Assembly: GCA_024875585.1 (NCBI GenBank)
Contig: GCA_024875585.1_4107.1
Length of the DNA stretch: 64,000 nt
Strand: one strand, 5' to 3'
Source of the DNA: a phage
The position numbers and the translations under genes are program-made. Under the pieces are notes generated by a model. That model searched no databases, was not told the origin of the DNA, and was given only the letters and a program-made list of their open reading frames with translations. Shown piece after piece: positions 34,575-63,766 of this stretch. Numbering within the stretch: the stretch's first letter is position 1; every line of letters starts with the position of its first letter.

Positions 34575-35111
34575 ATGTTAGATAAAAAAATGAACACTGG
34601 AACTCTATACAATCATCTTAAGTTGGATACTTTCGAATCAGCTATCAGTACTGCACAAGATATTATCGATATTATTAAGTACATTAAAGAAAATAAGTTA
34701 AAATGTGTGAAAACACCCGAACGTACAATGTATAAAGATGACTGTATTCACGTATCTGTTGTTAATCCAAAAGATAAGGATGGTAATAGAGATTTCTATA
34801 ATAACAGTGAGCAGTTCGAATGTGAATATGATCCAGAATTCAGAGGTGGTTTCATGTGTTACAGTATGAAGGATACCTCACACATTGAGATACGTTCATC
34901 TAAAGGTGGCATACGTACATTAGAGTTCATTGATATAGTTTTAAATCAGGAATACTACTTTCAACTATCATTATTGTTTCCTGCATACGATTTAGGAGTT
35001 CTATTCATGTATAAGTACTTTCATGAGCACTGGAATGAAGACTTCTATCTGGACTTAGAAGATTACCAATTAGTTTGGGAAGAAATGGTAGAACTTCGCA
35101 ACCACTCTTGA
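34575..35111 (+). CDS. Family B paralog
   Basis: QEYYFQLSLLF; start moved to ATG after SD (track 34527). Confidence 0.55.
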   Translation: MLDKKMNTGTLYNHLKLDTFESAISTAQDIIDIIKYIKENKLKCVKTPERTMYKDDCIHVSVVNPKDKDGNRDFYNNSEQFECEYDPEFRGGFMCYSMKDTSHIEIRSSKGGIRTLEFIDIVLNQEYYFQLSLLFPAYDLGVLFMYKYFHEHWNEDFYLDLEDYQLVWEEMVELRNHS

Positions 35112-35137
35112 CACCCACCGATTTTTTGTGATATAAT
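35108..35137 (+). promoter_or_regulatory. promoter with TGTGATATAAT extended -10
   Basis: TTGACA 35108-35113, ~18-nt spacer, TATAAT; leader hairpin CCCTTTA...TAAAGGG 35138-35160. Confidence 0.5.
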
Positions 35138-35170
35138 CCCTTTATATTAATTTTAAAGGGTTATAACACA

Positions 35171-35647
35171 ATGTCCAACGAACTCACATTCACCAATGCA
35201 CAAAAAATAGCAAAAGACATTATCAGGGTTTATAAATTCCTTGCGAATGTTACTGAAGATTTTTTAATTGATAAAAATAAAGTTATTAAGCGAAATGGAT
35301 ACCTTTCCTTTATGGATGGGTTGCTCTATAGTTCAGATGAGTCAGCTTGTAGTATTAGAGTACTTGATACTGTACCAAGTGGTGATTTTATTTCATACCA
35401 TTTTCCAAGTTCAGATAAGTTCAAATACTACAATAGTATTCTCATAGCAGAAGACTTTGATACGATTGTAATTAACACTGAAGAAGAGTTCTTCCAGTAC
35501 AGTACTGTGTACCCAGAGAGGATTGTTTTCAGTTCAGTGATTTACACTACCCTTAAAAATGAACTAAATTCCGATAGTGATCATTTCTACTTGGACCTGA
35601 ATAATATCGATTGTATTATTGAGTACATGGAGAAAAATGGTTTATGA
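35171..35647 (+). CDS. Family B paralog
   Basis: EEFFQYSTVYP. Confidence 0.6.
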   Translation: MSNELTFTNAQKIAKDIIRVYKFLANVTEDFLIDKNKVIKRNGYLSFMDGLLYSSDESACSIRVLDTVPSGDFISYHFPSSDKFKYYNSILIAEDFDTIVINTEEEFFQYSTVYPERIVFSSVIYTTLKNELNSDSDHFYLDLNNIDCIIEYMEKNGL

Positions 35648-36147
35648 TTACTACAGAATATGATTACAATAGTGTCCTTGAATTTGCAGAAAATATATAT
35701 CGTATTGCAAAGGAGTTCAGAAGTCCTGAGCCGTTTGGTGGTATGTTCGAATACGATGAGTTTAGTTCATCAAAAGGAAGACTTGCATTTACTAATGGTA
35801 GAGGTAATCAAATCTACACAGAGTACTTTGATGACAATGACTTTCATCACAAAGCCGAATACATTTCATATTGCCCTGGGTCTGATTTGAAGATTCATAT
35901 TGAAAGAGATATAGAAAATGTATTTGTTCCATATACTGATTTAGTCTTCATGTCAGAGGAAATGTACTTTCAGGAATCATTGATTCATGATACAAAAGTA
36001 CTTAATACTATATTATTATATGGTACACTACTTAATCATTACAAATACAATCAAAGATTCTTTTTAGATTTAGTAGTATACCATCAATGTGTGGATTATT
36101 TGAATGCAAAATCAGACAACAATTCAGTACATGACCGATGGTTCTGA
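35644..36147 (+). CDS. Family B paralog
   Basis: EEMYFQESLIHD; ATGA overlap. Confidence 0.6.
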   Translation: MITTEYDYNSVLEFAENIYRIAKEFRSPEPFGGMFEYDEFSSSKGRLAFTNGRGNQIYTEYFDDNDFHHKAEYISYCPGSDLKIHIERDIENVFVPYTDLVFMSEEMYFQESLIHDTKVLNTILLYGTLLNHYKYNQRFFLDLVVYHQCVDYLNAKSDNNSVHDRWF

Positions 36148-36466
36148 ATACTTTGTTTCAAGATATGTAATAAATCACAACCATTATGTAACCTATATTC
36201 CAGAGTACAATCAATTTTATATCCAGATTTATCAACATAATGGAAAGAGAAATGATATATATTCAGAAATAAAAATCCCTGATTATAGTTCTTTATCAGA
36301 AGAGGAATTGTTTCAGGAGAGCACTATCAGTACTGAAGATGTGTACGAAATAATGGAGTACCAGAAGGTACTTAAACATTTTCATGAAACAAATGATATA
36401 CAAATAGATATTGTTAAACCGTGGTGTTACAATACATATGAGGTAAATTATGTTAGAAATGATTAA
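36104..36466 (+). CDS. Family B paralog
   Basis: EELFQESTIST; start uncertain. Confidence 0.55.
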   Translation: MQNQTTIQYMTDGSEYFVSRYVINHNHYVTYIPEYNQFYIQIYQHNGKRNDIYSEIKIPDYSSLSEEELFQESTISTEDVYEIMEYQKVLKHFHETNDIQIDIVKPWCYNTYEVNYVRND

Positions 36467-36863
36467 AATTATGCAACGCTGTCTTATTGACAAATACGGG
36501 ATATATGGATATCGTTTAAGTGCTCCTATTGACAAAAATAAAACAACCTATGTAAGCTATAATGCTGTACAAGGGTTTGATATATTCATTAGTACTAATT
36601 ATCAAATCAAACAAGCTAAAGATGTGTCTATAATGACCCCTGATGAGTTATTTCAGTACAGCTTAGTTCTTCCTACATGTATCGATTTACAACGTCTAGG
36701 AGCGATACAGAAGGTTTTACGCGAACATAAAGTACAACCCAATAAAGTCACGCACATTCCAGAAACAATCTTCAAAACTATAGAAGTAGAAACCCCTGAT
36801 TATATGTTAAGTGATGATGAATTCTACGAGAAGCACTTCCCTGGTAAAGTTTGGAGAGACTAA
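36450..36863 (+). CDS. Family B paralog
   Basis: DELFQYSLVLP. Confidence 0.6.
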   Translation: MLEMIKIMQRCLIDKYGIYGYRLSAPIDKNKTTYVSYNAVQGFDIFISTNYQIKQAKDVSIMTPDELFQYSLVLPTCIDLQRLGAIQKVLREHKVQPNKVTHIPETIFKTIEVETPDYMLSDDEFYEKHFPGKVWRD

Positions 36864-37345
36864 TGAACCGAAAGTACAGAGAAACTATGAAGTTCGCTAA
36901 GGAGTGTTTAGAGACATTTGATTTCATTTTCGATAACAAAGACTCACTTGGTCATTACTTCGTAATTACAAAAAAAGAAGATGAGAGATACAAGTGTCAA
37001 AGATTAGGATACAGTATTGAGTTATCCTTAATGAGTGATGGTATGATAAACTCCATATATGAATCTGGTAAGACAGATTACATTTCATTTAGATCATGGA
37101 GTGATAATATAATGTTCTTGAGTCCTAATGGAAGTAAATATCCATTCATTAATGATTTATCAGAAGAAAGTTACTTTCAAAACAGTTTAATTTATACAGA
37201 AAAAGAACTCAAAATGTTATTCATAATGTCGTACTTTAAAAAGTACTGTAAATTTAAATCATTATCTTTTGAGATTTCTGCGATGAAAGTATTCATTAAA
37301 AATGTAAAAGAATTAAAGAGGGCTTTTAATGTACATAGAAAATGA
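36863..37345 (+). CDS. Family B paralog
   Basis: ESYFQNSLIYT; start at TAATG overlap (track 36851 TTG). Confidence 0.55.
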   Translation: MNRKYRETMKFAKECLETFDFIFDNKDSLGHYFVITKKEDERYKCQRLGYSIELSLMSDGMINSIYESGKTDYISFRSWSDNIMFLSPNGSKYPFINDLSEESYFQNSLIYTEKELKMLFIMSYFKKYCKFKSLSFEISAMKVFIKNVKELKRAFNVHRK

Positions 37346-37871
37346 GAATGTAAAATGCATCACTGACATTTGTATAAAATTAATGAAAATTTTCATTAAC
37401 CCAAAATACAAGACTCGTTCTTTACGTCATAATATTGATGAGCATTGTACCATTAATATCCTAGGTAGTATTCTTGATGTAAAATATGATGGTAAACTGT
37501 TATTCGGTATAAGAGAAGAGAAAATGGATGATGCATTCTTTTCTTGTAAAGATAAATTTGAACCTTCTGATTATAAAGTAATTATTCGTGATGATAGCAT
37601 CTATATTAGTAGTGATTATTCAAATTACTTCGATAAAATATACACTGAAAACGTTGATTACCATTATGAAATGCTAGATTTACCAGTAACAGACATTGAT
37701 ATGGAGAGAATCAAATTTTCATTATCAGATAATGAGTACTTAGGTATACAAACATATTATTCACTACAAGGAAAGATTCCACCTGCTATGTATATAAGGA
37801 TTGAGATTGGTAATGTATTCAATGATAAGGTTATATCAATTGCTGATAAAATATTGAGGGTTGAATTATGA
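37329..37871 (+). CDS. hypothetical protein (180 aa), possibly divergent Family B
   Basis: ORF+SD AAAGAGGG; motif not clear. Confidence 0.5.
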   Translation: MYIENENVKCITDICIKLMKIFINPKYKTRSLRHNIDEHCTINILGSILDVKYDGKLLFGIREEKMDDAFFSCKDKFEPSDYKVIIRDDSIYISSDYSNYFDKIYTENVDYHYEMLDLPVTDIDMERIKFSLSDNEYLGIQTYYSLQGKIPPAMYIRIEIGNVFNDKVISIADKILRVEL

Positions 37872-38431
37872 ATGGCCATGATTACCAATTCCATAGACTA
37901 GAATTTAGACACTGTGTTGCATATGCAAAAACATTAATGTGCATCATTGACACTCTTTCATCCGAACAATTTTGTAAGGATAATGATTTATTGCTGAAAA
38001 AAGGTCGTATAACATCATCCGATATCGGTATTGAACTATTTGTTGAAATCAGTGTTGATACCGGAGACAGTACAAGGGCTGGTTGTATAGGTCATATTGG
38101 TACACATTGTTTCACATGGAATCCAAATACAAGTCAAGTTAGAATTGATTATAGAAATTCACGTTGGGTTGATCTTAGTACTGAATCAGATTTAGAATCA
38201 GTTATGTTCCAGCTAAGTTTAATTCACGATCCTAATGAACTTCTTTATATTATTACTTTCAGTTATCTGTTACAAAACTACGATAGTCCATCAGGGTTTT
38301 TCATAGAATCAGATATAGATGAAATTATGGAAGAGATTCCTAGTTTAAAGAATATTCTGGAAGAAAAAGATTTCTATAAGGACTTCAGAGATTTATACGA
38401 CATGCACTTGGAGTTATTTAAGAATGGATAA
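37868..38431 (+). CDS. Family B paralog
   Basis: SVMFQLSLIHD; ATGA overlap. Confidence 0.6.
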   Translation: MNGHDYQFHRLEFRHCVAYAKTLMCIIDTLSSEQFCKDNDLLLKKGRITSSDIGIELFVEISVDTGDSTRAGCIGHIGTHCFTWNPNTSQVRIDYRNSRWVDLSTESDLESVMFQLSLIHDPNELLYIITFSYLLQNYDSPSGFFIESDIDEIMEEIPSLKNILEEKDFYKDFRDLYDMHLELFKNG

Positions 38432-38942
38432 AGATGATATTCTAATTAGACTAGTTCAGAGTTTGATAAAGTTCGCAAATAATGATATCAATACATACAA
38501 AGTAGGTGATATTGAATTCAAATCATTTGGTATGTACGGTGATGACGAAACATATTATGCTTCAATGAAATTTCAAGAATTTCACGAGATGTTAATATCG
38601 TTATCATACGAAGATGTTGACCCAAGATGGAGTTCCAGTATTTCACTATCGAGAATGGTAATTCGTAGTAAGCATCGTTACATTTCGTCAAAGAATACTC
38701 CTAACTTGATTAATATTGTGTTGAATGAAAATACAAACCCCCTATCTAAACATGATATCGTACCTTTAACCGATGAAGCAATTTTTCAATTGCGTACTAT
38801 TTGTGATGAAGATGTGATATCATGTATGAAAATTTATGAGAAAGTTGGGGGTGATATTCCCATGAACTATTACCTAACTATAGATGAAACGTATCTCCAA
38901 GATGATGTTCTGGCGTACATTGACAGTGTTTTACCAAAATAA
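38424..38942 (+). CDS. Family B paralog
   Basis: EAIFQLRTICD. Confidence 0.55.
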   Translation: MDKDDILIRLVQSLIKFANNDINTYKVGDIEFKSFGMYGDDETYYASMKFQEFHEMLISLSYEDVDPRWSSSISLSRMVIRSKHRYISSKNTPNLINIVLNENTNPLSKHDIVPLTDEAIFQLRTICDEDVISCMKIYEKVGGDIPMNYYLTIDETYLQDDVLAYIDSVLPK

Positions 38943-38964
38943 AGACCCGTTATGGGTCTTTTTG
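38943..38964 (+). terminator. rho-independent terminator
   Basis: AGACCCG-TTA-TGGGTCT then TTTTTG. Confidence 0.7.
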
Positions 38965-38974
38965 TGTTTATGGC

Positions 38975-39003
38975 TTTACAAGAGCATTCAGGTGTGTTAT
39001 ACT
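38975..39003 (+). promoter_or_regulatory. sigma70-type promoter (TTTACA-N17-TATACT)
   Basis: follows terminator; SD GGAGG downstream. Confidence 0.45.
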
Positions 39004-39030
39004 TGATTTCAAATAGAGTTGGAGGAATAT

Positions 39031-39594
39031 ATGAGTACTGAATTAATTAAAGAAGTTACCTTACTTCTGAAGCATTGTTTTAAGTTCATTCCTGATACTG
39101 GTTCACGCCAGTACATTAAAGTTAATGAGAAATATAACATCAATATCCTTGTATCTGAAACTGCGAGCAGCTATGCTAACATTGAGTTGGATTCTGAAGA
39201 AAAATATACAGTATTACAAATCATAGCAGATGTACAACGTAAACAAGATTATCGTTCTTCATTTGACAACGATTATCTGTGTGTTTGCTCAAACTTCAGT
39301 GAGAATAAAATTGTGTATAAGAATTTATACACACATGAAGTGATTGATACATATAATTATAAAATTTCATCTGATGAATACAATGTTCTAATGTTCAACG
39401 CAAACCTTTTGTATGATGCCAGTACTGTACGCTGTTTAGAGTTAGCATATAAAATTCCAAAGATCATGGAAAGAAAAGATTTGATTCACTTTAAAACTAT
39501 TTTAAAATACAGTACAAAAGAATTAGAAGATTTAGTACAGGCTCTTAAGAATTTCATTAATGAACATGTACCTGTTAAATTAGAGGACTTATAA
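39031..39594 (+). CDS. Family B paralog (degenerate motif)
   Basis: YNVLMFNANLLYD; start at ATG after SD GGAGG (track TTG 39019). Confidence 0.55.
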   Translation: MSTELIKEVTLLLKHCFKFIPDTGSRQYIKVNEKYNINILVSETASSYANIELDSEEKYTVLQIIADVQRKQDYRSSFDNDYLCVCSNFSENKIVYKNLYTHEVIDTYNYKISSDEYNVLMFNANLLYDASTVRCLELAYKIPKIMERKDLIHFKTILKYSTKELEDLVQALKNFINEHVPVKLEDL

Positions 39595-46357: not shown

Positions 46358-46831
46358 ATGGAGATTAAAACTGTTGAAAATGGGAAAATTGATGACATTT
46401 TAGACTTGGACGCATTCAAAGTTCATGATATAATGTTTAATGTGAAGGACATTATTCAATGTCTGTTTTTATGCAGCAAGACTATGCATGATTTTTTTCA
46501 CAACCCGAATACTAATGTTTTTATACTTACAATCAGTACTGAAAACTCGTTCATCATGGGTATGCCCATGAGTACAAATGAACAGTATATTGATTGTGTT
46601 ATTCGCAATAATGATTGTATTACCCCACAATCTGAAGTTCGCAAAAAGAAAAACACTTACACAATCAAAGATGATAAAATCATGATGTGTTGCAGTAAAG
46701 GATTTATATTGGACAATTTCATCGTCAAAGATAGTTATCATGACTTTAAAATTTCCGAAAATCAATCCAATGTAGTTCTTTATGCTAGTGATATCGAAAG
46801 TTTAACAGTCAAAGATCCTAGTTTGGAGTAA
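46358..46831 (+). CDS. hypothetical protein (157 aa)
   Basis: ORF; no family motif. Confidence 0.55.
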   Translation: MEIKTVENGKIDDILDLDAFKVHDIMFNVKDIIQCLFLCSKTMHDFFHNPNTNVFILTISTENSFIMGMPMSTNEQYIDCVIRNNDCITPQSEVRKKKNTYTIKDDKIMMCCSKGFILDNFIVKDSYHDFKISENQSNVVLYASDIESLTVKDPSLE

Positions 46832-46971: not shown

Positions 46972-46994
46972 GTCTAAATTTTTGAGGATTGTAT

Positions 46995-47843
46995 ATGTTG
47001 GACATTTCAGATTTTCTTAATTTTAAAAAGTATTCAGTACTTGAACATATCAACGAATTTCTGAATTCCCCAACACCATTTGGTATCAGTACATCAGATT
47101 CATACGATGGATATAGAATCTTCCCATGCAATGACTTTCAAATTTCTGTCAAAAAAGGTTTTACAAAAGAAGTTGCAATTCGTGATGTAGTAATGTATAG
47201 CGATTCTTCTATTTCTTACTGTCATGATGTGAACAATTTTGAATCTCTTTCAACACCTAATTGTTCATACTACAAATCCCATGACACGATGATGTATAAA
47301 GAACAACATATCAATGGTGTTTCGTTCTACAAAACTAGCAGTGATAAATCATATACATCTAGAGATGATTTTGGAAAATACACATGTACTATGCACACGG
47401 ATAATGAAAAAACAAATTACACTCATTCATTCGAGTCCAAATTCCAAGAGAGTGAAGTTTCAAATATCACTATACAAGAACAGGTTTCAGAAGGCATTGT
47501 ATATCGTAGTACTGCATTCTTTCGCATGAAAGATGTTGCCACAGGCAGACCAATGATGTACAATATTGACATATACATGAAAGGTGATATATCAGAAGTA
47601 GTGATTAGTACTGGTTATCGTGAAAAATATACAGTTACAATGGAATCACCAGATGCATCGTTAGTTCACCTCTTTAACAATTTATATACATTCCAATTCG
47701 AACTTAGTTTAGACTACAATGAATATCAAATATTCGATATATTAAAAAGTAATATTATTAATAAGTTAGAATATTACTACAAGTTAGGTGGTAAGATGTG
47801 CATAGTTAATACTATGTTACATAACATAAAAGAAACATTATAA
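46995..47843 (+). CDS. hypothetical protein (282 aa), possibly divergent Family B
   Basis: start at ATG after SD GAGGA (track TTG 46989); C-terminal YTFQFELSLDY. Confidence 0.55.
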   Translation: MLDISDFLNFKKYSVLEHINEFLNSPTPFGISTSDSYDGYRIFPCNDFQISVKKGFTKEVAIRDVVMYSDSSISYCHDVNNFESLSTPNCSYYKSHDTMMYKEQHINGVSFYKTSSDKSYTSRDDFGKYTCTMHTDNEKTNYTHSFESKFQESEVSNITIQEQVSEGIVYRSTAFFRMKDVATGRPMMYNIDIYMKGDISEVVISTGYREKYTVTMESPDASLVHLFNNLYTFQFELSLDYNEYQIFDILKSNIINKLEYYYKLGGKMCIVNTMLHNIKETL

Positions 47844-47859: not shown

Positions 47860-48153
47860 ATGGATACTAAATTCAAAATTATTTTTAAAACTAAGCCGTA
47901 TATTCCACATACAGCAGAACGTTTTATACCACATGATGCAGAGGAAATTATTCATCAAGATGGTACAAAGTTATATCTAGTGCCATGTTCATATGAACGT
48001 GCAGTAGAAATGTTACTCATGAATTCTAAATTATGTACAAACAAGTACATTAGTTACTTATATAATGAACATATTTTAGATTTTAATGATGAAAATATGT
48101 TTATTCTGGCAATTGAAGATTTTAATAATTGGTACAACATTATTAAAATCTGA
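47860..48153 (+). CDS. hypothetical protein (97 aa)
   Basis: ORF+SD GGAGGA. Confidence 0.65.
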   Translation: MDTKFKIIFKTKPYIPHTAERFIPHDAEEIIHQDGTKLYLVPCSYERAVEMLLMNSKLCTNKYISYLYNEHILDFNDENMFILAIEDFNNWYNIIKI

Positions 48154-48160: not shown

Positions 48161-48190
48161 TTGTGAACATATTAAATCTTTATGATATAA
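48161..48190 (+). promoter_or_regulatory. promoter with TGATATAAT -10 inside inverted repeat GTGAACAT...ATGTTCAC
   Basis: TTGTGA, ~18 nt, TATAAT; 8-bp inverted repeat flanks the -10; T-run follows. Confidence 0.45.
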
Positions 48191-48223
48191 TGTTCACATC
48201 TTTTTTTGATAATGGAGATATAG

Positions 48224-48660: not shown

Positions 48661-48966
48661 ATGGAAGATAATGGAATGAAATTTGATATGTTTGAGGGTG
48701 TACCTGAGTTTGATTTTAACAAACTAGAAAATGGTGAAGAGTCAGAACTCGTTAGTGTTACACTTAAAGCAGATTCTAAAAAGAAATATTCATCAACGGT
48801 ACGTTCACGTTCACAAGAAGAATATGAATCTTTCATTGAAAGTATTCATTATGAAACATTATATCATAAAGATGGAACTCCATATGAAGTACGTGTAACA
48901 GTACTGAAGCCTGAAGTGAATCCAATGGAAAATCTACGTCCTGTTTACTGCTGGGCAAGTCACTAA
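48661..48966 (+). CDS. hypothetical protein (101 aa)
   Basis: ORF+SD AAAAGGAAT. Confidence 0.65.
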   Translation: MEDNGMKFDMFEGVPEFDFNKLENGEESELVSVTLKADSKKKYSSTVRSRSQEEYESFIESIHYETLYHKDGTPYEVRVTVLKPEVNPMENLRPVYCWASH

Positions 48967-49017: not shown

Positions 49018-49872
49018 ATGAAACTTTATCTAATAGTTGACTATAATAAAGAATATGCTGGAAATTTTTCTGAAGATTCAGAAGGACATTGTACCTCTAC
49101 TAATGTTAATGTGCGTTCCAGTAATACACATGAGCATGAATCAATTACTAATCTAAAAAATTTCATCACATATCGAGCCTTTGAAACCAATTTTTGTCGT
49201 TCGAGATATTCTAAGTTTGAGTACCCATTAATTGATGTTCCTGATGAATTGATGTTCCAGCTAATGTTAACTGGAGTTCAAGATTATGATTATATTGCTT
49301 ATAATCACATAACAAAGAAGATTTACATTGGAACATCAGTACACGATACTTCCATGTATGCATCATGCCCAGATGATCGAATGAAGCATAGAAATTCATA
49401 CTATAGTGGATCAGTTGGTTCAAATAATTCATCAAATAAAAATTCATTCTTTGAGTACGTGTATGATTACCATCACGAGAAAAAAGAACGTGAAGATTAC
49501 TGTATAGAGATTGATAGTACTAATGGATATGAAGACGTAAAAGAAGCTCTTATGCCATACATTATAGAAAAATACTACAAAGATTTTCAGTACTGTAGTA
49601 ATTTTCTAATCAGAAATTCTATTCAAATCGGTCGTCAATCCACTGCATACGCTATGTACTACAGTGATTCTCCAGTTGTAGCAGGAAATGAAAGGGGTGA
49701 TATCCTACCAATTCCACGTGAAGATATGACATTCATTTTTACATCTTTTATTGAGGATGATGAATTGTACGTTAAAAATAAGCATCGTTTCATGCCAAGT
49801 AAAATTGAGATTATTAGAAGCATCAGTGTTGATATATTAACCAATTTTACTGAAAAAACTGAATATAACTGA
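49018..49872 (+). CDS. Family B-related protein (284 aa)
   Basis: DELMFQLMLTG motif near N-terminal third; SD ATGGAG. Confidence 0.6.
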   Translation: MKLYLIVDYNKEYAGNFSEDSEGHCTSTNVNVRSSNTHEHESITNLKNFITYRAFETNFCRSRYSKFEYPLIDVPDELMFQLMLTGVQDYDYIAYNHITKKIYIGTSVHDTSMYASCPDDRMKHRNSYYSGSVGSNNSSNKNSFFEYVYDYHHEKKEREDYCIEIDSTNGYEDVKEALMPYIIEKYYKDFQYCSNFLIRNSIQIGRQSTAYAMYYSDSPVVAGNERGDILPIPREDMTFIFTSFIEDDELYVKNKHRFMPSKIEIIRSISVDILTNFTEKTEYN

Positions 49873-49902
49873 GACAAAATAGAAGTTAATGATATAATGT
49901 GA

Positions 49903-49931
49903 GGTGACAGTATATACTGTCACCTTTTTTT
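49903..49931 (+). terminator. rho-independent terminator
   Basis: GGTGACAGTATATACTGTCACC then TTTTTTT; preceded by TGATATAAT box. Confidence 0.7.
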
Positions 49932-50500
49932 AATCCTGAAAGGTTCCTATAAGGAAATGATTAAAAGCCTAATCCACTCGAAAATGTAGAGGGTAGATGA
50001 GTAGTCCTTTCAGTACGAACAGCAGATGAAACCCGTTAGATGATGGCATAGTTTGAACCACTCACGGCAATGCGGCTGTATAAAGAACTCCAATAGGATA
50101 AAGAGAGTTCCTAGATAGACATATAAGGATCGCACCTTACCAATTATCTAAGGGAGATTTCATAAGAAATATGCGGTCGGAATTATACAATATAGTTGCG
50201 TCCAAATTTTGTGAAATCAAATACAAGTACTGGTCATATGGTATTTGTATTATGTGTCGGGATGTTTAAGACCGACGACCGTTGCTACAAGAACCGCGAT
50301 AGAGAGAAACAGAGCAACCCGCTTTCGTCTCGTAAGAGAATTCGTGATATGAACTATGTGAAGGCCACCAGCGTCAAACTTTTTTGTTCTTTCCCCTGCG
50401 GGGGGGGATGAAATATGCTCAAGCAAACCTCGTCAATATTAATTAAAAGACTTTATAATACTTGTAGAATTGTACATGCACCGCATGGAGAATTCTACTG
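49932..50500 (+). ncRNA. candidate structured non-coding RNA / ORF-free GC-richer region
   Basis: ~570 bp with no RBS-preceded ORF, visibly higher GC than flanks, several local hairpins; identity unknown. Confidence 0.3.
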
Positions 50501-51097
50501 ATGTTGATTACATCAACATCACGTATATTCATTGATGTTTCCATAGGAATAATGATGGCATTTATTAAAAAAGAAAAAACTATTACTTATAAAACTTTGA
50601 ATTTTGATGATTGTATTAATCAATCACAGGACGAAAATATTTTTACTGGATATGTGGTTATTAAAGAAAAAGGATGCATTTCTTATATAAAGGAATTGCA
50701 AAATGGCATTGAAGTCACTTCAGTTAAATTACTTCCTACACAAAAACCAACAATATCAAAAGCCCAGTACGGTAATTATTTCGAGGAAAGATACAGTAAT
50801 AATTTAATAAGTGTTAAAGCTCATATTGTAAAAGGAGAACTAGAAGGAGAATATAGAAAATTCAACCCACAAGGAAAATGTGTTTGGGTTAAATACTACA
50901 ATTCAGGTGTTGATATAACATCTGAAATTATAGAGTTCTTAGGGTTGTCATGTACACCTGAAACTCTTCATGACTACAAATTTAATACTGAAGAAGAGTT
51001 TAATCTGATGATGCGTTATGGATCACATTTTAAATTTTTATATGAATATAACGTTGACAGTAGTATTTTTGATAAAATAGTACATAACTGTCTATAA
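50501..51097 (+). CDS. hypothetical protein (198 aa), possible MORN/YwqK-like repeats
   Basis: ORF+SD GGAGAA; GEYRKFNPQGKCVWVKYYNSG repeat-like segment. Confidence 0.55.
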   Translation: MLITSTSRIFIDVSIGIMMAFIKKEKTITYKTLNFDDCINQSQDENIFTGYVVIKEKGCISYIKELQNGIEVTSVKLLPTQKPTISKAQYGNYFEERYSNNLISVKAHIVKGELEGEYRKFNPQGKCVWVKYYNSGVDITSEIIEFLGLSCTPETLHDYKFNTEEEFNLMMRYGSHFKFLYEYNVDSSIFDKIVHNCL

Positions 51098-51635: not shown

Positions 51636-52165
51636 AAGAAACATGTATATTATCATTTATGAGATGTAACCCAGTCCACAATGGACATGGTTTAGTTTTT
51701 GAAAAGGCCAAAACATTACAAGAACAGTACAATGCTGATTTAAAAATTTATCTAAGCACTAGTACTGACAATATAAAAAACCCACTACCACCTGAACTAA
51801 AAATGTATTATACAGAGGGATTCTATCCTTCAGTGCAAGAGAACATCTACACAGAGGACAATCTATTTGATATAATGAGAGAACTGGATGGAAAGTACTT
51901 AGATGTTCTCTTCATATGTGGTTCTGACCGTATTGATTCTTTTCAGAAAACCCTTGACACTTACAATGGGAAGTTGTATAATTTTTGTAATATAAAAGTA
52001 ATTCAAGCAGGTATTGACCGCCAATCAAGTCGATATAGCTCAACACAAATGCGTAAGTTTGCCAAAAATGAAGATTTTGATAGTTTTCGTGAGTTTTTGC
52101 CTGGAAATGACGAGAACTTAAAAATTCAATTATTTGAAGATGTTATAAAATACATGAGGAAATAA
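51632..52165 (+). CDS. nucleotidyltransferase, NMN/NaMN adenylyltransferase-like
   Basis: N-terminal HNGH (HxGH) and C-terminal SSTQMR (SxTxxR) motifs of cytidylyltransferase-fold enzymes; ATGA overlap with dam. Confidence 0.55.
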   Translation: MKETCILSFMRCNPVHNGHGLVFEKAKTLQEQYNADLKIYLSTSTDNIKNPLPPELKMYYTEGFYPSVQENIYTEDNLFDIMRELDGKYLDVLFICGSDRIDSFQKTLDTYNGKLYNFCNIKVIQAGIDRQSSRYSSTQMRKFAKNEDFDSFREFLPGNDENLKIQLFEDVIKYMRK

Positions 52166-53650: not shown

Positions 53651-53913
53651 ATTATAAAGATTTCCAATTAACATATAAGATTATTCGCAATCTAGCACAC
53701 AGCAATAATAGCCCTAGTCTAGAAGACACATGCACAGAAATGATCCATACGATTCGTGCAAAGATTGAAGAAAATTTCAGTACTGTTATTATTAATGATG
53801 ACCATGCAGAATTTTCTGATATAATCATTAGACGTGATGGTAAAGTTGAGGTTCAGTACTACACTGATTTTGGATTTACAAGTGTACCGTTGGAGATATT
53901 CCCTTGGGATTAA
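53647..53913 (+). CDS. Family C small protein
   Basis: MNYKDFQLTYKII; start at ATGA overlap (track 53623). Confidence 0.55.
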   Translation: MNYKDFQLTYKIIRNLAHSNNSPSLEDTCTEMIHTIRAKIEENFSTVIINDDHAEFSDIIIRRDGKVEVQYYTDFGFTSVPLEIFPWD

Positions 53914-55699: not shown

Positions 55700-55964
55700 A
55701 GTTCTTATTGCTGAAACAATGAAGATGATTTACTTTATTACTACGGCACAGGATTTGTCTTATCCAGTGAAATCGTTACTTAGGTCAATGTATCTTGATA
55801 TTGTAAAAGAATATTATAAATCTAAACACAGAAGCATTATTAGTGTTTATCGTGATTATGAAAGGATTCGTATTTTATTCTGGAACAAGAATCGAGTACG
55901 TTCTGAATGTGATCTAGTAGATTTTAAATTAGAGAATCTTTATTGCTATAAACAGGAACAATAG
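55680..55964 (+). CDS. hypothetical protein (94 aa)
   Basis: start moved to ATG after SD AAGGA (track 55662). Confidence 0.5.
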   Translation: MTNTTNEVLIAETMKMIYFITTAQDLSYPVKSLLRSMYLDIVKEYYKSKHRSIISVYRDYERIRILFWNKNRVRSECDLVDFKLENLYCYKQEQ

Positions 55965-55973
55965 TTTAATTCA

Positions 55974-55982
55974 TGATATAAT
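55974..55982 (+). promoter_or_regulatory. TGATATAAT extended -10 box
   Basis: same 9-mer as at 35129, 48183, 49892, 63747; no clear -35. Confidence 0.35.
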
Positions 55983-56751: not shown

Positions 56752-56761
56752 AGGAATCGTC

Positions 56762-57046: not shown

Positions 57047-57053
57047 AAATATA

Positions 57054-57077: not shown

Positions 57078-57090
57078 CGCAGGTACAAAG

Positions 57091-57393: not shown

Positions 57394-57400
57394 AACTAAA

Positions 57401-58665: not shown

Positions 58666-58666
58666 T

Positions 58667-58930: not shown

Positions 58931-60069
58931 CCCTTTTGCAAATATATGAAGATTTAATGCACTTGTGCAATACAAACGATGCGTTCTTTTATGTGGATCA
59001 TAAAAGTCCTGCTGGTGGAACGTATCGTGTATTCAGTTATCGTCTAGCATCATATACTGATTTCATGCAACCCAATGCATTAGAAACCCGTGGATCTATG
59101 TGGGAAATTGATGAAGAAGGTAATATGATTCGTTGTGCTGCTCGTACTATGAAAAAGTTCTTTAATGCTTACGAGAATCCTGCTACAATGTTCCCTGCTA
59201 ACACCACATGCGATGACATTGCAGTAGTGATGCCTAAATTGGATGGTTCAGTGATCAGTACTTACCGTGACAATGATGGTGAGATTCGTTGTAAATCACA
59301 TACTGCATTGTATTCTGACCATGCGATTAACAGTACTCGACTTATTAACGAGAACCAGAATCTATATCAGTACATCGATGAAGCTGAACGTTTAGGTTAC
59401 ACAGTTAATATGGAGTATACAAGCCCAGAGTACCGAATTGTATTACCGTATCAGGTAGAACAATTGTTTGTGCTGAACGTTCGTCATCGTGTAAGTGGTG
59501 AGTTGCTATGTGGTAAAGCATTACGTGATAAGTTTCCATGTCTTTCACAGTACAGCACTAATATGACAGGAAAAGATATTCATCACACTTTTCCTGTGCG
59601 AAATTCATTCCGTGAAAGCGTTGATGAAGTTCATAAAATGCTTGACATTGAGGGTTTTGTTTGCATTTTAAAAGATGGGACAATGTGTAAAATAAAGACT
59701 GACTGGTACAGTTCATTACATCTTACAAAAGATAGTATTATTATTGATTCTCATTTATATGAAGCTGTATTAAATGGTTCAAGTGATGATTTAAAACAAT
59801 TGTTCAGTTCTGACGAATATGCTATGCAAAAGATATTAAGAATGGAACAGTTGGTTTTTTCGTGCTATAATGCATTACAAGATGAAGTAGAAAGCTTCGT
59901 CAATGAACACAAGCACTTAGAGCGAAAGGAATTCGCATTGAAGGTTCAGACGTGCTTATCTAGTGAACTGAATCGTCAGGGCTTGGCATTTGCAATGTAT
60001 AATAATAAGAAAGTTGATTACAAAGATACACTTATCAAATACATGAAAATTATACTAAAAGATTTTTAG
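58927..60069 (+). CDS. rnlA: RNA ligase 1 (T4 Rnl1-like, ATP-dependent)
   Basis: FFY.D..S..G.TYR.FSY..ASY N-terminal block, nucleotidyl-lysine motif PKLDGS, and overall colinearity with T4 Rnl1 from memory. Confidence 0.85.
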   Translation: MTLLQIYEDLMHLCNTNDAFFYVDHKSPAGGTYRVFSYRLASYTDFMQPNALETRGSMWEIDEEGNMIRCAARTMKKFFNAYENPATMFPANTTCDDIAVVMPKLDGSVISTYRDNDGEIRCKSHTALYSDHAINSTRLINENQNLYQYIDEAERLGYTVNMEYTSPEYRIVLPYQVEQLFVLNVRHRVSGELLCGKALRDKFPCLSQYSTNMTGKDIHHTFPVRNSFRESVDEVHKMLDIEGFVCILKDGTMCKIKTDWYSSLHLTKDSIIIDSHLYEAVLNGSSDDLKQLFSSDEYAMQKILRMEQLVFSCYNALQDEVESFVNEHKHLERKEFALKVQTCLSSELNRQGLAFAMYNNKKVDYKDTLIKYMKIILKDF

Positions 60070-60099
60070 TACTAACTAGCCTAAGCACAAGGAGAAGTG

Positions 60100-60354
60100 A
60101 TGGCTAAACCTAAGTATAAAAATGACGGTTCCCTTTCTCCAACTGAGTTCAGGAAAATACAACAAGAAATCGATGAATTACAGCACAAACGCTCAATGAA
60201 AGGTGTGAAGATAAGTAAGAAGAGAATCGAGAATACTTTCGGATGTAGTAGTACTGAATATAAGAAGAAAAGGAAACCGAAGGGTGTTAAGCCGAGAATA
60301 CATGATGTAACTCGCTATACATCAAAACGTGAAAATAAATTTGATCCACTATAA
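60100..60354 (+). CDS. small basic protein (84 aa)
   Basis: ATG after SD AAGGAGAAG; Lys/Arg-rich. Confidence 0.55.
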   Translation: MAKPKYKNDGSLSPTEFRKIQQEIDELQHKRSMKGVKISKKRIENTFGCSSTEYKKKRKPKGVKPRIHDVTRYTSKRENKFDPL

Positions 60355-60363
60355 GGAGTTCAT

Positions 60364-60594
60364 ATGAAAGTTGAAGTTCAGCATAGTATTGTTCAAGATA
60401 TGTCTGTAGTTAAATTTCTTTCATTAAAAGATTACTTTAGATGTATCAAGTTCCTAGAAGAATCTCATTTAAAATGGACTCCATTAAAGTACAGTTCATC
60501 CAAAGACACTGCTAGTATTCGTTGTGATGAAGCTGTACTCGTAAAAATCTCTAAAAGATTTGGGATAGGTAAAGTGAATGAGCACAGTAAATGA
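60364..60594 (+). CDS. hypothetical protein (76 aa)
   Basis: ORF+SD AAGGAG. Confidence 0.6.
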   Translation: MKVEVQHSIVQDMSVVKFLSLKDYFRCIKFLEESHLKWTPLKYSSSKDTASIRCDEAVLVKISKRFGIGKVNEHSK

Positions 60595-60832
60595 ACTAAA
60601 ATACTACAACAAAATTGCGGATACGTTTATTACTCATTTATATGAAGAATTCAGTAGTATCCGCAAGGAATATACAGGTAAATGTATTTTATATAGTTCT
60701 TATCTTAGTGGAAGAATTGAACGTGCTTACATTACTAAAGTGAAGTTTTCTGATGATTATCAATTACTATTTGAATTGGATGATTGTTTAGTCATTGAAG
60801 CTGATTTAATAGTAGATGTGCTGAACAATTGA
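60578..60832 (+). CDS. hypothetical protein (84 aa)
   Basis: ORF overlapping upstream gene by 17 nt. Confidence 0.5.
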   Translation: MSTVNELKYYNKIADTFITHLYEEFSSIRKEYTGKCILYSSYLSGRIERAYITKVKFSDDYQLLFELDDCLVIEADLIVDVLNN

Positions 60833-60838
60833 GGACAT

Positions 60839-61153
60839 ATGAATAAAGAACTTGCATATAAGGGTATCGAAAAGCTAAAGTTCGTTGAAAAGGAACTAAT
60901 AGAATCAGTTGAAACAATGGTTGAAGATTACGTTTTTGATTTTAAGAAAACATTAATTGGATGTAAAGTCAAATGCTGGGATCATACCATTAGAGAATGG
61001 TTCAGTGCTATAATTCTTGATGTTAAAGTATCTCGAACTGGTATTGGTAACTTAGTAAATGGTGAATGCTTTGTATACACTGAATACAATAACGGTACAA
61101 GACACCTTTCAAAAGGATGGCACAATCTCGAAGATGTAGAATTCATTGAGTAA
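60839..61153 (+). CDS. hypothetical protein (104 aa)
   Basis: ORF+SD GAGGACAT. Confidence 0.6.
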   Translation: MNKELAYKGIEKLKFVEKELIESVETMVEDYVFDFKKTLIGCKVKCWDHTIREWFSAIILDVKVSRTGIGNLVNGECFVYTEYNNGTRHLSKGWHNLEDVEFIE

Positions 61154-61165
61154 CAAGGAGTAATA

Positions 61166-62098
61166 ATGCCAACTATCACCTTAACAATTGGGTTGCCTGG
61201 GTGTGGTAAAACTACATGGGCAGTGCAAGAGATTAAAAACGCCAAATCTAAGACTATCAACATCAACCGTGATGATATTCGTGAATCTATGGCGGGGTCA
61301 CATGATGCTTACAAATTCAACGATGCTAATGAGCAGTACGTAACTACTTTACAGTTCAGTGCAGCAAATTTAGCAGCAGAGAATGGTTGGAACATCATCA
61401 TATCCGATACGAACCTTAAACAACATTTCCGTGATCTCTGGAAAGTATGGGCTAAAGATAATGATTATGATTACAAAGAAAAGAACTTCTATGATGATTT
61501 TGTACCTAATGAAGACCGTGGTGCAGATGTTCATGAATTCTTTAAGATTAAAGAGTTCGTAAAACTTTGTAAGAAATATAACCGCCAGCGTGAGCGTTCA
61601 GTACAAGATAATATCATTGACACTATGGCAGATACTTACTATTATAGTAAAGCAATGCACATTGGTTACTATGGTAATTCAAGAGAAGCCGCTGTTATCG
61701 TTGATATTGACGGAACTCTTGCTCATAAATGGGGTCGTAATCCTTACGATGAAAGTACTGTACTACAAGATACACCAGATGAAGAAGTTATTTTGTCTAT
61801 TATCGCTGAAGCAGTTTTCCATAAACGTAAGATTATTGTAATGAGTGGGCGTACTGAAGGGTGTCGTGCAGACACAGAACAGTGGCTTAAGAATTGGGGT
61901 GTTCCTTACGATGCATTGTTTATGCGAGGCATCGATGATAAACGACCCGATGATGTGGTAAAATATGAGTTGTATATGAATAACGTCGTGCATCATTACG
62001 ATGTTAAAAAAGTATACGATGACAGATCACAAGTCGTATTCATGTGGCGTAAACTACTTGGATTAAAAGTGATGCAAGTTGCAGAAGGAAATTTCTGA
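61166..62098 (+). CDS. pseT: polynucleotide 5'-kinase / 3'-phosphatase (T4 Pnk-like)
   Basis: P-loop GLPGCGKTT, NINRDD, and HAD-phosphatase motif DIDGTLA; colinear with T4 Pnk from memory. Confidence 0.85.
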   Translation: MPTITLTIGLPGCGKTTWAVQEIKNAKSKTININRDDIRESMAGSHDAYKFNDANEQYVTTLQFSAANLAAENGWNIIISDTNLKQHFRDLWKVWAKDNDYDYKEKNFYDDFVPNEDRGADVHEFFKIKEFVKLCKKYNRQRERSVQDNIIDTMADTYYYSKAMHIGYYGNSREAAVIVDIDGTLAHKWGRNPYDESTVLQDTPDEEVILSIIAEAVFHKRKIIVMSGRTEGCRADTEQWLKNWGVPYDALFMRGIDDKRPDDVVKYELYMNNVVHHYDVKKVYDDRSQVVFMWRKLLGLKVMQVAEGNF

Positions 62099-62105
62099 CA
62101 CAAAA

Positions 62106-62129
62106 GGGATCAATGTATGATCCCTTTTT
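62106..62129 (+). terminator. rho-independent terminator
   Basis: GGGATCA-ATGTA-TGATCCC then TTTTTC. Confidence 0.75.
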
Positions 62130-62147
62130 CTTTTAAGGTATATTATA

Positions 62148-62324
62148 ATGAATGTAAAAACACAGATGTTATTACAAAAAGAATACTTAGAAAATATAGA
62201 AATGTTCTATAGATTGTCTTTATACGAAAATAAACATAAAAAATATAACTTTTCTAAACAACTAACCACAAGTACTAATGATTATCTATTTTCATCAATG
62301 TTTTATGTGAGAGGTTTATTATAA
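62148..62324 (+). CDS. hypothetical small protein (58 aa)
   Basis: ORF below cutoff; TAATG overlap with next gene. Confidence 0.4.
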   Translation: MNVKTQMLLQKEYLENIEMFYRLSLYENKHKKYNFSKQLTTSTNDYLFSSMFYVRGLL

Positions 62325-62581
62325 TGGATAAATTTCACACAGATATAACACAGATAGGTAATCTTATCAATAGTCTAATTACTGATTTAGAAGAAAAGTA
62401 CTTAGGTCGAAATGTATACGTTGAAATGTATGAAACATATGGTGTTATTGATATGATTTATTACAGTGCATTGAAGTGTGAAATACGTTTAACAGTATGT
62501 TTGTTTGAAAAAGATACATTCAACAGAAGTACTGCAATTCGTCAGGTTGGTGTAGATGACATTGAATTATATGAGGAATAA
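62324..62581 (+). CDS. hypothetical small protein (85 aa)
   Basis: ORF; resembles neighbours (KYLGRNVYVEMY). Confidence 0.55.
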   Translation: MDKFHTDITQIGNLINSLITDLEEKYLGRNVYVEMYETYGVIDMIYYSALKCEIRLTVCLFEKDTFNRSTAIRQVGVDDIELYEE

Positions 62582-62835
62582 TGATGTTTGAACAGGACGT
62601 AGAGCTATTCAAAAGACATATTGAATATTTGACTGTTTTAGAGAATGATTTAACCACAAAATACAAAGGAATTAGAGTCCAGTGTTGGTATGATGACTGG
62701 GATTATAAAAGGGAACTTACTATTGACCGAATTTATTTCAGTGATGGTGTACTGAATGTACATGGTGTAAATGATTTTGGTCATTCATATACATATTCTA
62801 ATAATGCTAAATTTAAAAGGATCTGCAATGAATGA
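62581..62835 (+). CDS. hypothetical small protein (84 aa)
   Basis: ORF; KYKGIRVQCWY resembles neighbours. Confidence 0.55.
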   Translation: MMFEQDVELFKRHIEYLTVLENDLTTKYKGIRVQCWYDDWDYKRELTIDRIYFSDGVLNVHGVNDFGHSYTYSNNAKFKRICNE

Positions 62836-63130
62836 ATATTATCATAATTTATTCGATTACATAAAACTAATAGATGATCTTTCTTTTGAATTTCTCAGTA
62901 CTGAAAAAGTTGATGAACCTCTCTATTATGATTGTATTAGTTCACTGTGTTTAGATGAAAAAGAGATATTAGCAAATAACTTACCATCCACGGTCTGTGT
63001 AATCAATGGTTCCAAGGCTGTGGTGTCTGAGGTTAATTTTCATAAATCACTTAATACAATTGTTTACAAGTTCGATAACACTTGGTTTAATCACGTAACT
63101 AGTAATATTAAATCTGTGAGATTTTTATGA
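62828..63130 (+). CDS. hypothetical protein (100 aa)
   Basis: start moved to first ATG (track 62771). Confidence 0.5.
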   Translation: MNEYYHNLFDYIKLIDDLSFEFLSTEKVDEPLYYDCISSLCLDEKEILANNLPSTVCVINGSKAVVSEVNFHKSLNTIVYKFDNTWFNHVTSNIKSVRFL

Positions 63131-63423
63131 ATATAAAAAAATTATTTGAACAAGTAAATTTATTGTACTTGTGTTCAGACGGCTCAGATAAGGAATATAG
63201 TGAAGTTTATTTAGAACTATTTAGAACTGAAATACATCTAATTCGAAGATACCTAATTGATAACAAAACTGAAGTAAAAGTTAGATACCATAATGGTACT
63301 TTAAAGAATGGTATAATTATTGGATTGATAGTTACAAGAATGTCCAGTAATATTAAAGTTGCAGTAAGATTAATGACTGATGATGGTGTCTACACAATAG
63401 AAGCTAATGAGATTATATATTAA
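63127..63423 (+). CDS. hypothetical protein (98 aa)
   Basis: ATGA overlap. Confidence 0.55.
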   Translation: MNIKKLFEQVNLLYLCSDGSDKEYSEVYLELFRTEIHLIRRYLIDNKTEVKVRYHNGTLKNGIIIGLIVTRMSSNIKVAVRLMTDDGVYTIEANEIIY

Positions 63424-63729
63424 ATGGATATACAAACATTCAATAAACTAAAGTACTATGATAATGGTTTTGTATTAATAATTAACGAACTTGATAGTAT
63501 ACCATACGAATATCATAATCAAGTAATGAATATAGTAAAAAATATATGTGAAGAACTAAAAAGTATATTTAAAAATGAATATGTTTATGATTTAGGTAAT
63601 AATAGAACAAAACTATACATAAAGAAATTCTGGGGAACACATTGTGGTTTGATGGTCGATTTGGGTTTAAGTTTAGACAATAATTTCGAATCATGTTCAT
63701 TATATTTGGACGAAATGAGAATCTCATGA
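63424..63729 (+). CDS. hypothetical protein (101 aa)
   Basis: ORF directly after previous stop. Confidence 0.55.
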   Translation: MDIQTFNKLKYYDNGFVLIINELDSIPYEYHNQVMNIVKNICEELKSIFKNEYVYDLGNNRTKLYIKKFWGTHCGLMVDLGLSLDNNFESCSLYLDEMRIS

Positions 63730-63746
63730 GACATAAGGACATTCGG

Positions 63747-63766
63747 TGATATAATTTGATTATATC
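63747..63766 (+). promoter_or_regulatory. TGATATAAT -10 box within palindrome GATATAAT-TTG-ATTATATC
   Basis: extended -10 consensus embedded in perfect 8-bp inverted repeat; SD AAGGAG follows. Confidence 0.4.

Follow-up and report, generated by a model that had tools for sequence, protein, structure and literature searches.

The closest described promoter system is that of Pectobacterium phage CBB, for which MEME predicted three promoter classes (Buttimer et al. 2017, PMC5259590). The first is RpoD-like, has UP elements and belongs to the early small-gene region; the second, the 'divergent' Promoter 1, has TGAAACG at −35 and is also reported for Cronobacter phage GAP32; the third consists of T4-late-like ATAAATA promoters. 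Table S6 of the same paper gives Promoter 1 as TGAAACG-N13-TG(G/A/C)TATAAT and places one member 5′ of a gp55-like gene. Promoters are not discussed in the papers on phAPEC6, fEgEco12, UE-S1 and RaK2, and in the literature searched the promoters and transcription programme of the 121Q/PBECO4 group are undescribed; several such phages are considered for therapy. Here we analyse a stretch of phage DNA of 64,000 nucleotides (contig GCA_024875585.1_4107.1, hereafter the window), in which a sequence-only reading had picked out a recurrent 9-mer, TGATATAAT, as the extended −10 box of a second, possibly operator-controlled promoter class. The window shares 96.5% identity with Escherichia phage UE-S1 and about 92% with 121Q, PBECO4 and phAPEC6, and judged by its sequence its source is a 121Q/PBECO4-like jumbo coliphage of the genus Asteriusvirus (jumbo myoviruses of about 350 kb). 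Nearly all window genes lie on the + strand. Genome-wide counts were made on the relative EC22.5-2 (EC22), a complete genome of 351,992 bp, about 91% identical to the window, that was assembled from an unannotated record and whose gene map is a crude open reading frame (ORF) call. The conservation of sites was read from an alignment with UE-S1, EC22.5-2, WPEC5 (about 85% identical) and A4 (about 79%).

A second promoter class with its own −35 word

The sequence-only reading had proposed a genome-wide count of the 9-mer as a check. Run on EC22, it returned 47 copies of TGATATAAT where a first-order Markov model expects about 15, and 21 intergenic copies against about 1.4, the split between intergenic and coding DNA being approximate given the crude ORF map. 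The 9-mer is neither at chance frequency nor indifferent to gene boundaries in this genome, and the signal is real. The EC22 copies are mostly co-oriented with genes, and the distance from the end of the −10 box to the start codon is 28–35 nt at many intergenic EC22 sites and 31–33 nt at four sites in the window. Variants of the box in EC22 intergenic DNA favour A after the TG (TGA 21, TGC 7, TGG 3, TGT 2).

When the 21 intergenic EC22 copies are aligned on the TG, a second element appears at positions −20 to −14, with the profile T14 G14 G14 G14 A17 C14 A14. The box had rightly been taken to mark a promoter class, but the class has a −35 word of its own, TG(G/A)GACA, 13 nt 5′ of the TG, and this had been missed. 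The full consensus, which we call class M, comprises an A-rich stretch, TG(G/A)GACA, 13 nt and TG(A/C)TATAAT. A scan of EC22 over the 16 positions of TGGGACA-N12-14-TGATATAAT, of which TGAGACA and TGCTATAAT are frequent variants, found 35 sites matching at least 14/16 positions (2.05 expected), 14 matching at least 15/16 (0.15 expected) and 7 matching all 16 (0 expected). With the variants allowed, seven window sites reach at least 14/16 against 1.6 expected and three reach at least 15/16 against 0.075; the seven begin at 35109, 46406, 48130, 49870 (16/16), 55954, 59843 (15/16) and 63727 (16/16). The promoters and candidates in the window are as follows.

35108..35137, + strand: host-type promoter, TTGACA (35108-35113), 15 nt, TGATATAAT (35129-35137); 33 nt before ATG 35171
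46406..46434, + strand: candidate internal promoter, TTGGACG-N13-TGATATAAT, 14/16; 48 nt into gene 46358-46831
48163..48191, + strand: predicted promoter, GTGAACA-N13-TGATATAAT; 32 nt before ATG 48224
49870..49898, + strand: predicted class M promoter, TGAGACA-N13-TGATATAAT, 16/16
55954..55982, + strand: predicted class M promoter, AGGAACA-N13-TGATATAAT; 31 nt before GTG 56014
59843..59871, + strand: class M candidate, TGGAACA-N13-TGCTATAAT, 15/16; in the 3′ end of the RNA ligase gene, 226 nt before gene 60097
63727..63755, + strand: predicted class M promoter, TGAGACA-N13-TGATATAAT, 16/16; 31 nt before GTG 63787, in a gene that exceeds the window end

At the five intergenic window sites the word and the box are retained in the aligned relatives while the spacer drifts, and a kept word and kept box around a drifting spacer form a promoter-type conservation footprint. 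The word at the 48183 site reads GTGGACA in WPEC5 and CTGGACA in A4, and that at the 55974 site reads AGGGACA, CGGGACG or CGGGACA; at both the box is constant and the spacer varies. At 63727 the word and box are kept in EC22 and WPEC5 and the spacer is again variable. The 59843 site, invisible to a search with the 9-mer, has a counterpart at 100661 in EC22 that keeps both elements with a different spacer. The 46426 site is unchanged out to A4, where its surroundings are 74% identical; it may be an internal promoter, or protein-coding constraint could account for its conservation.

The five copies that had been listed at first are all real and all intergenic, four of them 31–33 nt before a start codon and the fifth, which starts at 49890 and not at 49892, just 5′ of a strong terminator hairpin. 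The list was incomplete, since the window holds 11 copies and not 5. One listed site falls outside the class: the copy at 35129 is without the class word and has a canonical TTGACA like other promoters of the surrounding gene array. Its −35 and box are the same in UE-S1, EC22 and WPEC5 while the spacer changes, and it groups with the array promoters at 19556, 22981, 38943 and 42243, of the form TTGACN-N14-TGnTAnnnT, rather than with the TGRGACA class; we take it for an extended −10 promoter of the common host type. We consider it probable, given these patterns of motif and conservation, that TGATATAAT at 48183, 49890, 55974, 63747 and, with somewhat less certainty, 46426, together with TGCTATAAT at 59863, are extended −10 elements of a second, middle-type promoter class.

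This class is distinct from the early promoters of the phage, as had been claimed, and the two occupy largely separate regions of the genome. The early promoters carry AGTACT overlapping the −35 (AAAAGTACTTGCA) and/or directly 5′ of the −10 (TAGTACTGTATAAT), and none of the five listed sites contains AGTACT, again as claimed. About 35 strong promoters are tightly packed into the first 13 kb of the window, past which intergenic gaps are few. On the EC22 map the AGTACT-type promoters are concentrated at 30–50 kb, which corresponds to the first 13 kb of the window and the region upstream of it; class M extends over 80–345 kb and is almost missing from the early block. Genes directly 3′ of good EC22 sites encode ClpP, a NUDIX hydrolase, a 5′-3′ exonuclease, a gp32-like single-stranded DNA-binding protein and a PD-(D/E)XK nuclease, and further class M sites precede genes for primase and for a T4 gp55-like late sigma factor (phrog_12791, E = 3e-154). 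The sequence 3′ of EC22 site 317851 looks, by eye, like the start of a putative tRNA gene. In the window, class M precedes a block with genes for Dam methylase, cytidyltransferase, RNA ligase and polynucleotide kinase.

Class M shares with Promoter 1 of CBB and GAP32 a 7-nt word, a spacing of exactly 13 nt and the box TGNTATAAT. In the available portions of the CBB paper Promoter 1 also lies outside the early region and 5′ of DNA-synthesis genes and of the gp55-like late sigma gene, and it is a MEME prediction for which no factor is named; class M is likewise known from sequence alone. The CBB copy of Promoter 1 that precedes a conserved RNA (see below) is the position-for-position ortholog of the 49890 promoter. 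The words themselves differ, TGAAACG in Promoter 1 against TG(G/A)GACA in class M, as does the base after the TG, with A preferred in class M and G or C in CBB. Orthologous promoters of Mimasvirus and Eneladusvirus carry TGAAACG or TGAAACA. Because the layout is exactly equal, we read the window class as the Asteriusvirus counterpart, with another −35 word, of a class already predicted in sister genera. The most novel outcome is a by-product, a large multi-copy structured RNA that this class is predicted to express.

A phage sigma factor as the candidate reader

We propose a three-tier programme in which host-type early promoters would express a phage sigma-70-family protein, this protein would direct Escherichia coli core RNA polymerase to TG(G/A)GACA-N13-TGATATAAT through the lineage-specific −35 word, and a gp55-like sigma factor would serve late genes. 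A T4-like late motif, TATAAATA, was tried as a marker of the third tier and set aside, its 10 intergenic copies against about 5 expected per strand being too weak to define a late class.

Each genome of the clade encodes one sigma-70-family protein, in EC22.5-2 the product of gene 332205-333167. Published annotations, PDB sequences and Pfam all confirm its identity: in Pfam, region 3 passes its cutoff at 37.7 bits and regions 2 and 4 narrowly miss theirs, and among solved structures RpoD and SigA come closest. A search with the sigma protein found it once each in the same nine host-genus groups, with equal record counts, as a search with the window DNA. Host-type promoters stand 5′ of the gene, TTGACA-N17-TATAAT about 1.6 kb away in EC22 and TTGACA-N17-TATTAT directly adjoining in Munch. 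The CBB sigma gene likewise has an upstream promoter published as RpoD-like, Porf_510 (PMC5259590, Table S6).

The argument for a phage-encoded reader comes from the variation of the word. Predicted region 4.2 helices of the phage sigma fall into types that match it: xR(S/T)S(I/L)HR in EC22, WPEC5 and Munch goes with TG(G/A)GACA, VRGTLHY in RaK2 with TTGAACA, and SKATLSRR in CBB, Yen9-04 and XbC2 with TGAAACG or TGAAACA. Munch has a sigma that overall shares only 37% identity with that of EC22, yet it retains both the R...H helix and the TGAGACA word. This co-variation fits a sigma that reads the word. Region 4.2 of host sigma-70 is, as far as is known, essentially equal across the hosts of these lineages. 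That the word varies between lineages whose hosts have near-identical region 4.2, and that TGAAACG barely resembles TTGACA, makes a phage-encoded reader likely. Class M also offers portable promoter and sigma parts, and its genus-specific word, which tracks the sigma helix, makes the clade a natural experiment in the co-evolution of sigma factors and promoters.

Several points weigh against this reading. The helix–word co-variation comes from two deep lineage groups, and phylogeny is a confounder. The −10 of class M is the exact host sigma-70 optimum, and an alignment of the phage sigma with sigma-70 shows W433/W434 replaced by SS, H455 by Y and E458 by V, residues that we take, in role and numbering, to contact −12 and the TG; a host-optimal −10 combined with changed contact residues favours host sigma-70 as the reader of the −10. 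GGGACA matches TTGACA at 4/6 positions with a 16-nt spacer, and host polymerase alone might use class M. The label 'middle' draws on gene content and the analogy with CBB only, and the intergenic excess in EC22 inherits the approximate gene map noted above. Weighing these together, we regard it as evenly balanced whether the phage sigma reads the class M word. The fuller reading, in which class M is read by the phage's own sigma with a helix that co-evolved with the word and the regulon includes an unnamed RNA family of about 470–560 nt, we put forward tentatively, at a little under even.

The alternative that survives best divides the promoter between two readers. Host sigma-70 would read the extended −10, and a phage activator/sigma-remodelling pair of the MotA/AsiA kind would bind TG(G/A)GACA at about −30 to −35, leaving the phage sigma-70-like protein to serve another promoter set. 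Class M resembles the middle promoters of T4: its −10 is of the sigma-70 kind, an element peculiar to the phage stands near −30 to −35, and it would serve replication genes between the early and late phases. The phage has a T4-like late sigma as well. The match of TGATATAAT to the sigma-70 optimum and the loss from the phage sigma of several presumed −10 and TG contacts suit such a division, as does the position of the word, at about that of the T4 MotA box, and in CBB and XbC2 a gene for a helix-turn-helix regulator adjoins the sigma gene. The MotA box of T4 has the consensus (a/t)(a/t)TGCTT(t/c)A and is centred at −30. It is missing from the class M profile, which has TGGGACA and not TGCTT (a search for MotA and AsiA homologs was not made), and this clade encodes a full sigma-70-family protein where T4 is without one. 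The co-variation of the region 4.2 helix with the word also counts against an activator. The available portions of the CBB paper mention neither MotA nor AsiA (PMC5259590); with three promoter classes in CBB for the host, phage sigma-70-like and gp55-like sigmas, an activator at Promoter 1 would leave the phage sigma without a class. We consider a MotA/AsiA-like arrangement possible but rather unlikely.

More doubtful still is that class M comprises ordinary host sigma-70 extended −10 promoters with a weak −35, the word being a degenerate TTGACA and the class no class at all. TGATATAAT is an exact TGnTATAAT, its orientation and distance to start codons suit E. coli extended −10 promoters, and a perfect TGnTATAAT is established to work without a good −35; GGGACA shares GACA with TTGACA, and 35129 and the other array promoters truly are of this kind. 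The site at 35129, however, also has TTGACA, where class M instead has a conserved lineage-specific word. The start of that word is conserved as TGG or TGA, not TT, and TGAAACG of the sister genera, which agrees with TTGACA at 2/6 positions in either register, is equally conserved at the same spacing. Unlike plain sigma-70 promoters, class M also stands separate from the early promoters of host type that the phage itself carries, and it is excluded from the early region. A scan of window 45–64 kb with the plain sigma-70 consensus gave 122 sites against 118 in shuffles and is non-discriminating in such AT-rich DNA. We judge this explanation improbable.

Within Asteriusvirus the sigma gene itself is unusually variable: genomes about 85–96% identical in DNA to the window carry alleles with 99%, 83% or 60% amino acid identity, the 60% alleles belonging to genomes at about 85% (EC22.5-2 332205-333167; sigma loci L021-L026). 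This divergence within a genus suggests diversifying selection or allele exchange. Ecwhy_1, from which sigma is reported absent in the fEgEco12 paper, was considered as a natural sigma knockout and rejected when tblastn found a 60%-identical allele.

The 49890 promoter precedes a structured RNA family

The promoter at 49890 lies before a conserved region without a plausible ORF: window 49873-50500 has stop codons in every frame. The features of the region and the RNA paralogs outside the window are as follows.

49899..50441, + strand: predicted structured non-coding RNA, paralog copy 1, about 540 nt; no ORF; covariation
49901..49931, + strand: predicted intrinsic terminator (terminator scan), GC-rich hairpin followed by a run of seven T (T7), immediately 3′ of the 49890 promoter
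EC22.5-2 143390-143928, 223198-223671 and 333256-333719: RNA paralogs
L022 1723-2180 and L024 1643-2105: RNA paralogs

Window 49957-50444 is 66–74% identical to DNA of phages from other genera, in which it has no consistent annotation. The same order holds in 11/11 phages, namely a promoter, 2–5 nt, a GC-rich hairpin and about 500 nt with long invariant blocks, and the hairpin stem differs in sequence in every genus yet pairs. All of the 11 except Hallingskeid and XaC1 have the genus-specific word at 13-nt spacing, and most have T5-10 directly after the hairpin. In Hallingskeid the word, TGGGATA, was located by hand and the T-run is offset from the hairpin; XaC1 has a more diverged −10, and its sole upstream TGAAACA is off the 13-nt spacing.

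Covariation supports a folded RNA. RNAalifold on the 11 orthologs predicts 73 pairs, 27 of them with compensatory double changes against 4–8 when the pairing partners are slid, and the share of paired cells is 96.3%, compared with 86.7% in shuffles, none of 500 of which attains the observed value. With paralogs added (16 sequences) there are 94 pairs, of which 48 show double changes against 9–21 for slid partners, and 94% of cells are paired against 36–45%; on four of five measures the shuffles never attain the observed value, and on the fifth 1/500 does. Searching EC22 with an nhmmer profile gives four paralogs, at 89956, 143390, 223198 and 333256 (E 1e-79 to 1e-147), each directly 3′ of a class M promoter that had earlier been listed as without a nearby gene. 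One copy directly follows the sigma gene in EC22, WPEC5 and RaK2. Copy 2 lies between convergent genes, and from this position it is unlikely to be a mere 5′ leader. The family, of about 470–560 nt, ranges over Asteriusvirus, Mimasvirus, Eneladusvirus, Alcyoneusvirus and unclassified relatives. An invariant 18-base pattern has 21 matches in IMG/VR, all on contigs of 348–378 kb or fragments of 33–137 kb with at most three per contig, and these contigs look like members of this jumbo-phage clade. Together, these patterns suggest that the 49890 box drives a conserved structured RNA of about 540 nt, without a name in the databases searched.

The terminator would have a double role at this locus. 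The TGA stop codon of the upstream gene (49870-49872) forms the first three bases of TGAGACA, and with the stop inside the −35 word the terminator falls 3′ of the promoter. We propose that it ends upstream transcripts and serves as the 5′ hairpin of the RNA. The hairpin folds at −16.7 kcal/mol in read-through RNA and at −10.8 kcal/mol if transcription starts at G49904; the weaker hairpin on RNA from G49904 means that the terminator, on these modelled energies, may stop upstream transcripts better than box-initiated ones. The arrangement resembles lambda PR′-tR′, the target of the Q antiterminator, in that a hairpin and T7 come no more than about 30 nt after a strong promoter, both at 49890 and at EC22 237303; unlike in lambda, no Q-like factor or pause element was identified, and only 2/35 class members are so arranged. 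The second of these, EC22.5-2 237303-237370, has TGAGACA-N13-TGATACAAT followed by a hairpin and T7 (−14.3 kcal/mol), just 5′ of a protein-coding gene. Terminators set right behind promoters may be a recurring regulatory device of this phage.

The invariant blocks of the family (CACGGCAATGCGGCT, GATAGACATATA, CGACCGTTG, CAACCCGCTT and GGGGGATGAAA) are long and predicted to be single-stranded, which suggests a catalytic or ribonucleoprotein role. The RNA is like ROOL, GOLLD, OLE, HEARO and group I introns in its similar size, many covarying helices, invariant single-stranded blocks and carriage by phages. It differs from them in having its own predicted promoter, a place between genes, four paralogs in EC22 and no family match: Rfam 15 gave no match across the whole window at gathering scores, and at E ≤ 1 only terminator-like noise in 49800-50600. 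Scans for tRNA and tmRNA found nothing. Among 10,006 unnamed viral RNA candidates catalogued in 2023, four are mentioned as lying upstream of Dam methylase genes (PMC10690425), and the 49890 RNA may be present there without a name. Identity with ncRNA002 of PA5oct, which was detected by RNA-seq, was considered and rejected because nhmmer found no similarity.

Tracing one promoter box has thereby revealed a large multi-copy structured RNA where genome annotations either show nothing or place small ORFs that are spurious. In Munch (L019/L023), Yen9-04 (L015), Hallingskeid (L016) and WPEC5 (L011) the RNA region carries short annotated ORFs whose strands disagree, among them g047 and g048 of Yen9-04, five ORFs on the minus strand of Hallingskeid, and WPEC5_CDS0568-0571. 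Such calls are probably not genuine genes.

Inverted repeats around the box

The sequence-only reading had noted inverted repeats at two of its five sites and proposed that the box often lies inside one and that the class may be operator-controlled. Both repeats exist: GTGAACAT (48163-48170) pairs with ATGTTCAC (48190-48197), and TGATATAAT-TTG-ATTATATCA forms a 21-bp palindrome at 63747-63767. The hairpins and palindrome concerned are as follows.

48162..48207, + strand: hairpin (48162-48198) and T7 (48201-48207), fold −10.9 kcal/mol, z = −3.5
63747..63767, no strand assigned: perfect 21-bp palindrome of the −10 box and its downstream mirror image, fold −7.6 kcal/mol
35138-35160, + strand: predicted transcript 5′ hairpin after the 35129 promoter, fold −7.3 kcal/mol

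The pattern does not generalise. Among the 35 EC22 class members the z for folding energy across the promoter averages −0.46 (p = 0.11), and the longest inverted repeat 5.1 bp against 4.6 bp in shuffles (p = 0.09), neither of them significant. The 63747-63767 palindrome is perfect only here and in UE-S1, its right arm passing from ATTATATCA to ATTACATCA in EC22 and ATTACAACA in WPEC5. At 48163-48197, substitutions in WPEC5 and A4 form G-U wobbles that preserve RNA pairing while the DNA symmetry is lost, and the T-run is conserved; pairing-preserving changes with a conserved T-run are the behaviour of a terminator hairpin. We take the 48162-48207 element for the predicted terminator of gene 47860-48153, which happens to enclose the next promoter. 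We propose that the inverted repeats are by-products, namely terminator hairpins overlapping promoters, transcript 5′-end hairpins and one strain-specific palindrome. That they are operators of a phage-encoded repressor draws on 8–9-bp inverted repeats overlapping core promoter elements at 2/5 sites, but one of these palindromes is unconserved, the other is without DNA symmetry in A4 and keeps its RNA pairing with a T-run 3′, and the arms differ at every site with no operator sequence common to the class. Control of class M by such operators is thus unsupported, and we regard it as very unlikely.

Copies of the box in the window

An exact search of the window found 11 copies of TGATATAAT where 3.54 are expected (standard deviation 2.1). 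On the + strand they start at 35129, 46426, 48183, 49890, 51868, 53817, 55974 and 63747; those on the − strand occupy 2114-2122, 48858-48866 and 63759-63767, the last being the second arm of the 63747 palindrome. Relatives keep the five intergenic copies together with 46426, which lies in a gene; the remaining window copies look like chance. Those in or antisense to genes are as follows.

51868..51876, + strand: apparent chance 9-mer in the cytidyltransferase gene, without a −35 word at the class spacing; A4 has TGATATTAT
53817..53825, + strand: apparent chance 9-mer in a gene; WPEC5 has AGATATAAT
48858..48866, − strand: apparent chance 9-mer, antisense in a gene (exact search)
2114..2122, − strand: apparent chance 9-mer, antisense in an early-region gene (exact search)

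The copies at 51868 and 53817 and the antisense copies account for the roughly 3.5 chance occurrences expected. Although some 4–5 of the 11 copies thus lie in or antisense to genes, mostly unconserved, chance in AT-rich DNA has practically no prospect of explaining the recurrence as a whole, since 0/100 shuffles reach 11 copies, the intergenic excess in EC22 is about 15-fold and the linked −35 word yields perfect composite matches there where none are expected.

Neighbouring genes and other repeated elements

A pair of 284-amino-acid paralogs (window 46989-47843 and 49018-49872, the second a phrog_15199 match) flanks the 48183 promoter region. The ORFs tested from window 46–50 kb gave zero Pfam matches. 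An array of ORFs of about 140–210 amino acids lies 5′ of the paralogs at about 21000-46300 and is presumably the paralog array mentioned in the sequence-only reading.

The palindromes CGATCG, CAGCTG, AGGCCT and AGCGCT, each expected about five times, are absent from the window; the lack of these GC-containing 6-bp palindromes is consistent with restriction-site avoidance. AGTACT is by far the most enriched 6-bp palindrome, with 200 sites in the window against 21 expected (9.4-fold) and about 919 in the EC22.5-2 genome. Its sites fall between genes as well as in each of the three reading frames, and 90% of them are conserved in EC22, against 62.5% for composition-matched hexamers. This conservation and spread over all frames point to a DNA-level motif under genome-wide selection and not only a promoter element; as speculation, it could be bound by a DNA-packaging or nucleoid-like protein, or be a target of modification.

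The early region also holds four copies of a cassette (window 2860-3028, 6260-6314, 9268-9456 and 11554-11763) made of a hairpin, GGATTGACTTCGGTCAGTCC, and a promoter-like element, TTTGCTATTATATAT; three of the four add about 60 conserved nt (..GAGAGATAGCTCACTAGCCCACAGGGTGCGGGAGTGTATC..) with no ORF. The cassette may be a small RNA gene family, and the sigma gene of WPEC5 ends in a hairpin similar to that of the cassette.

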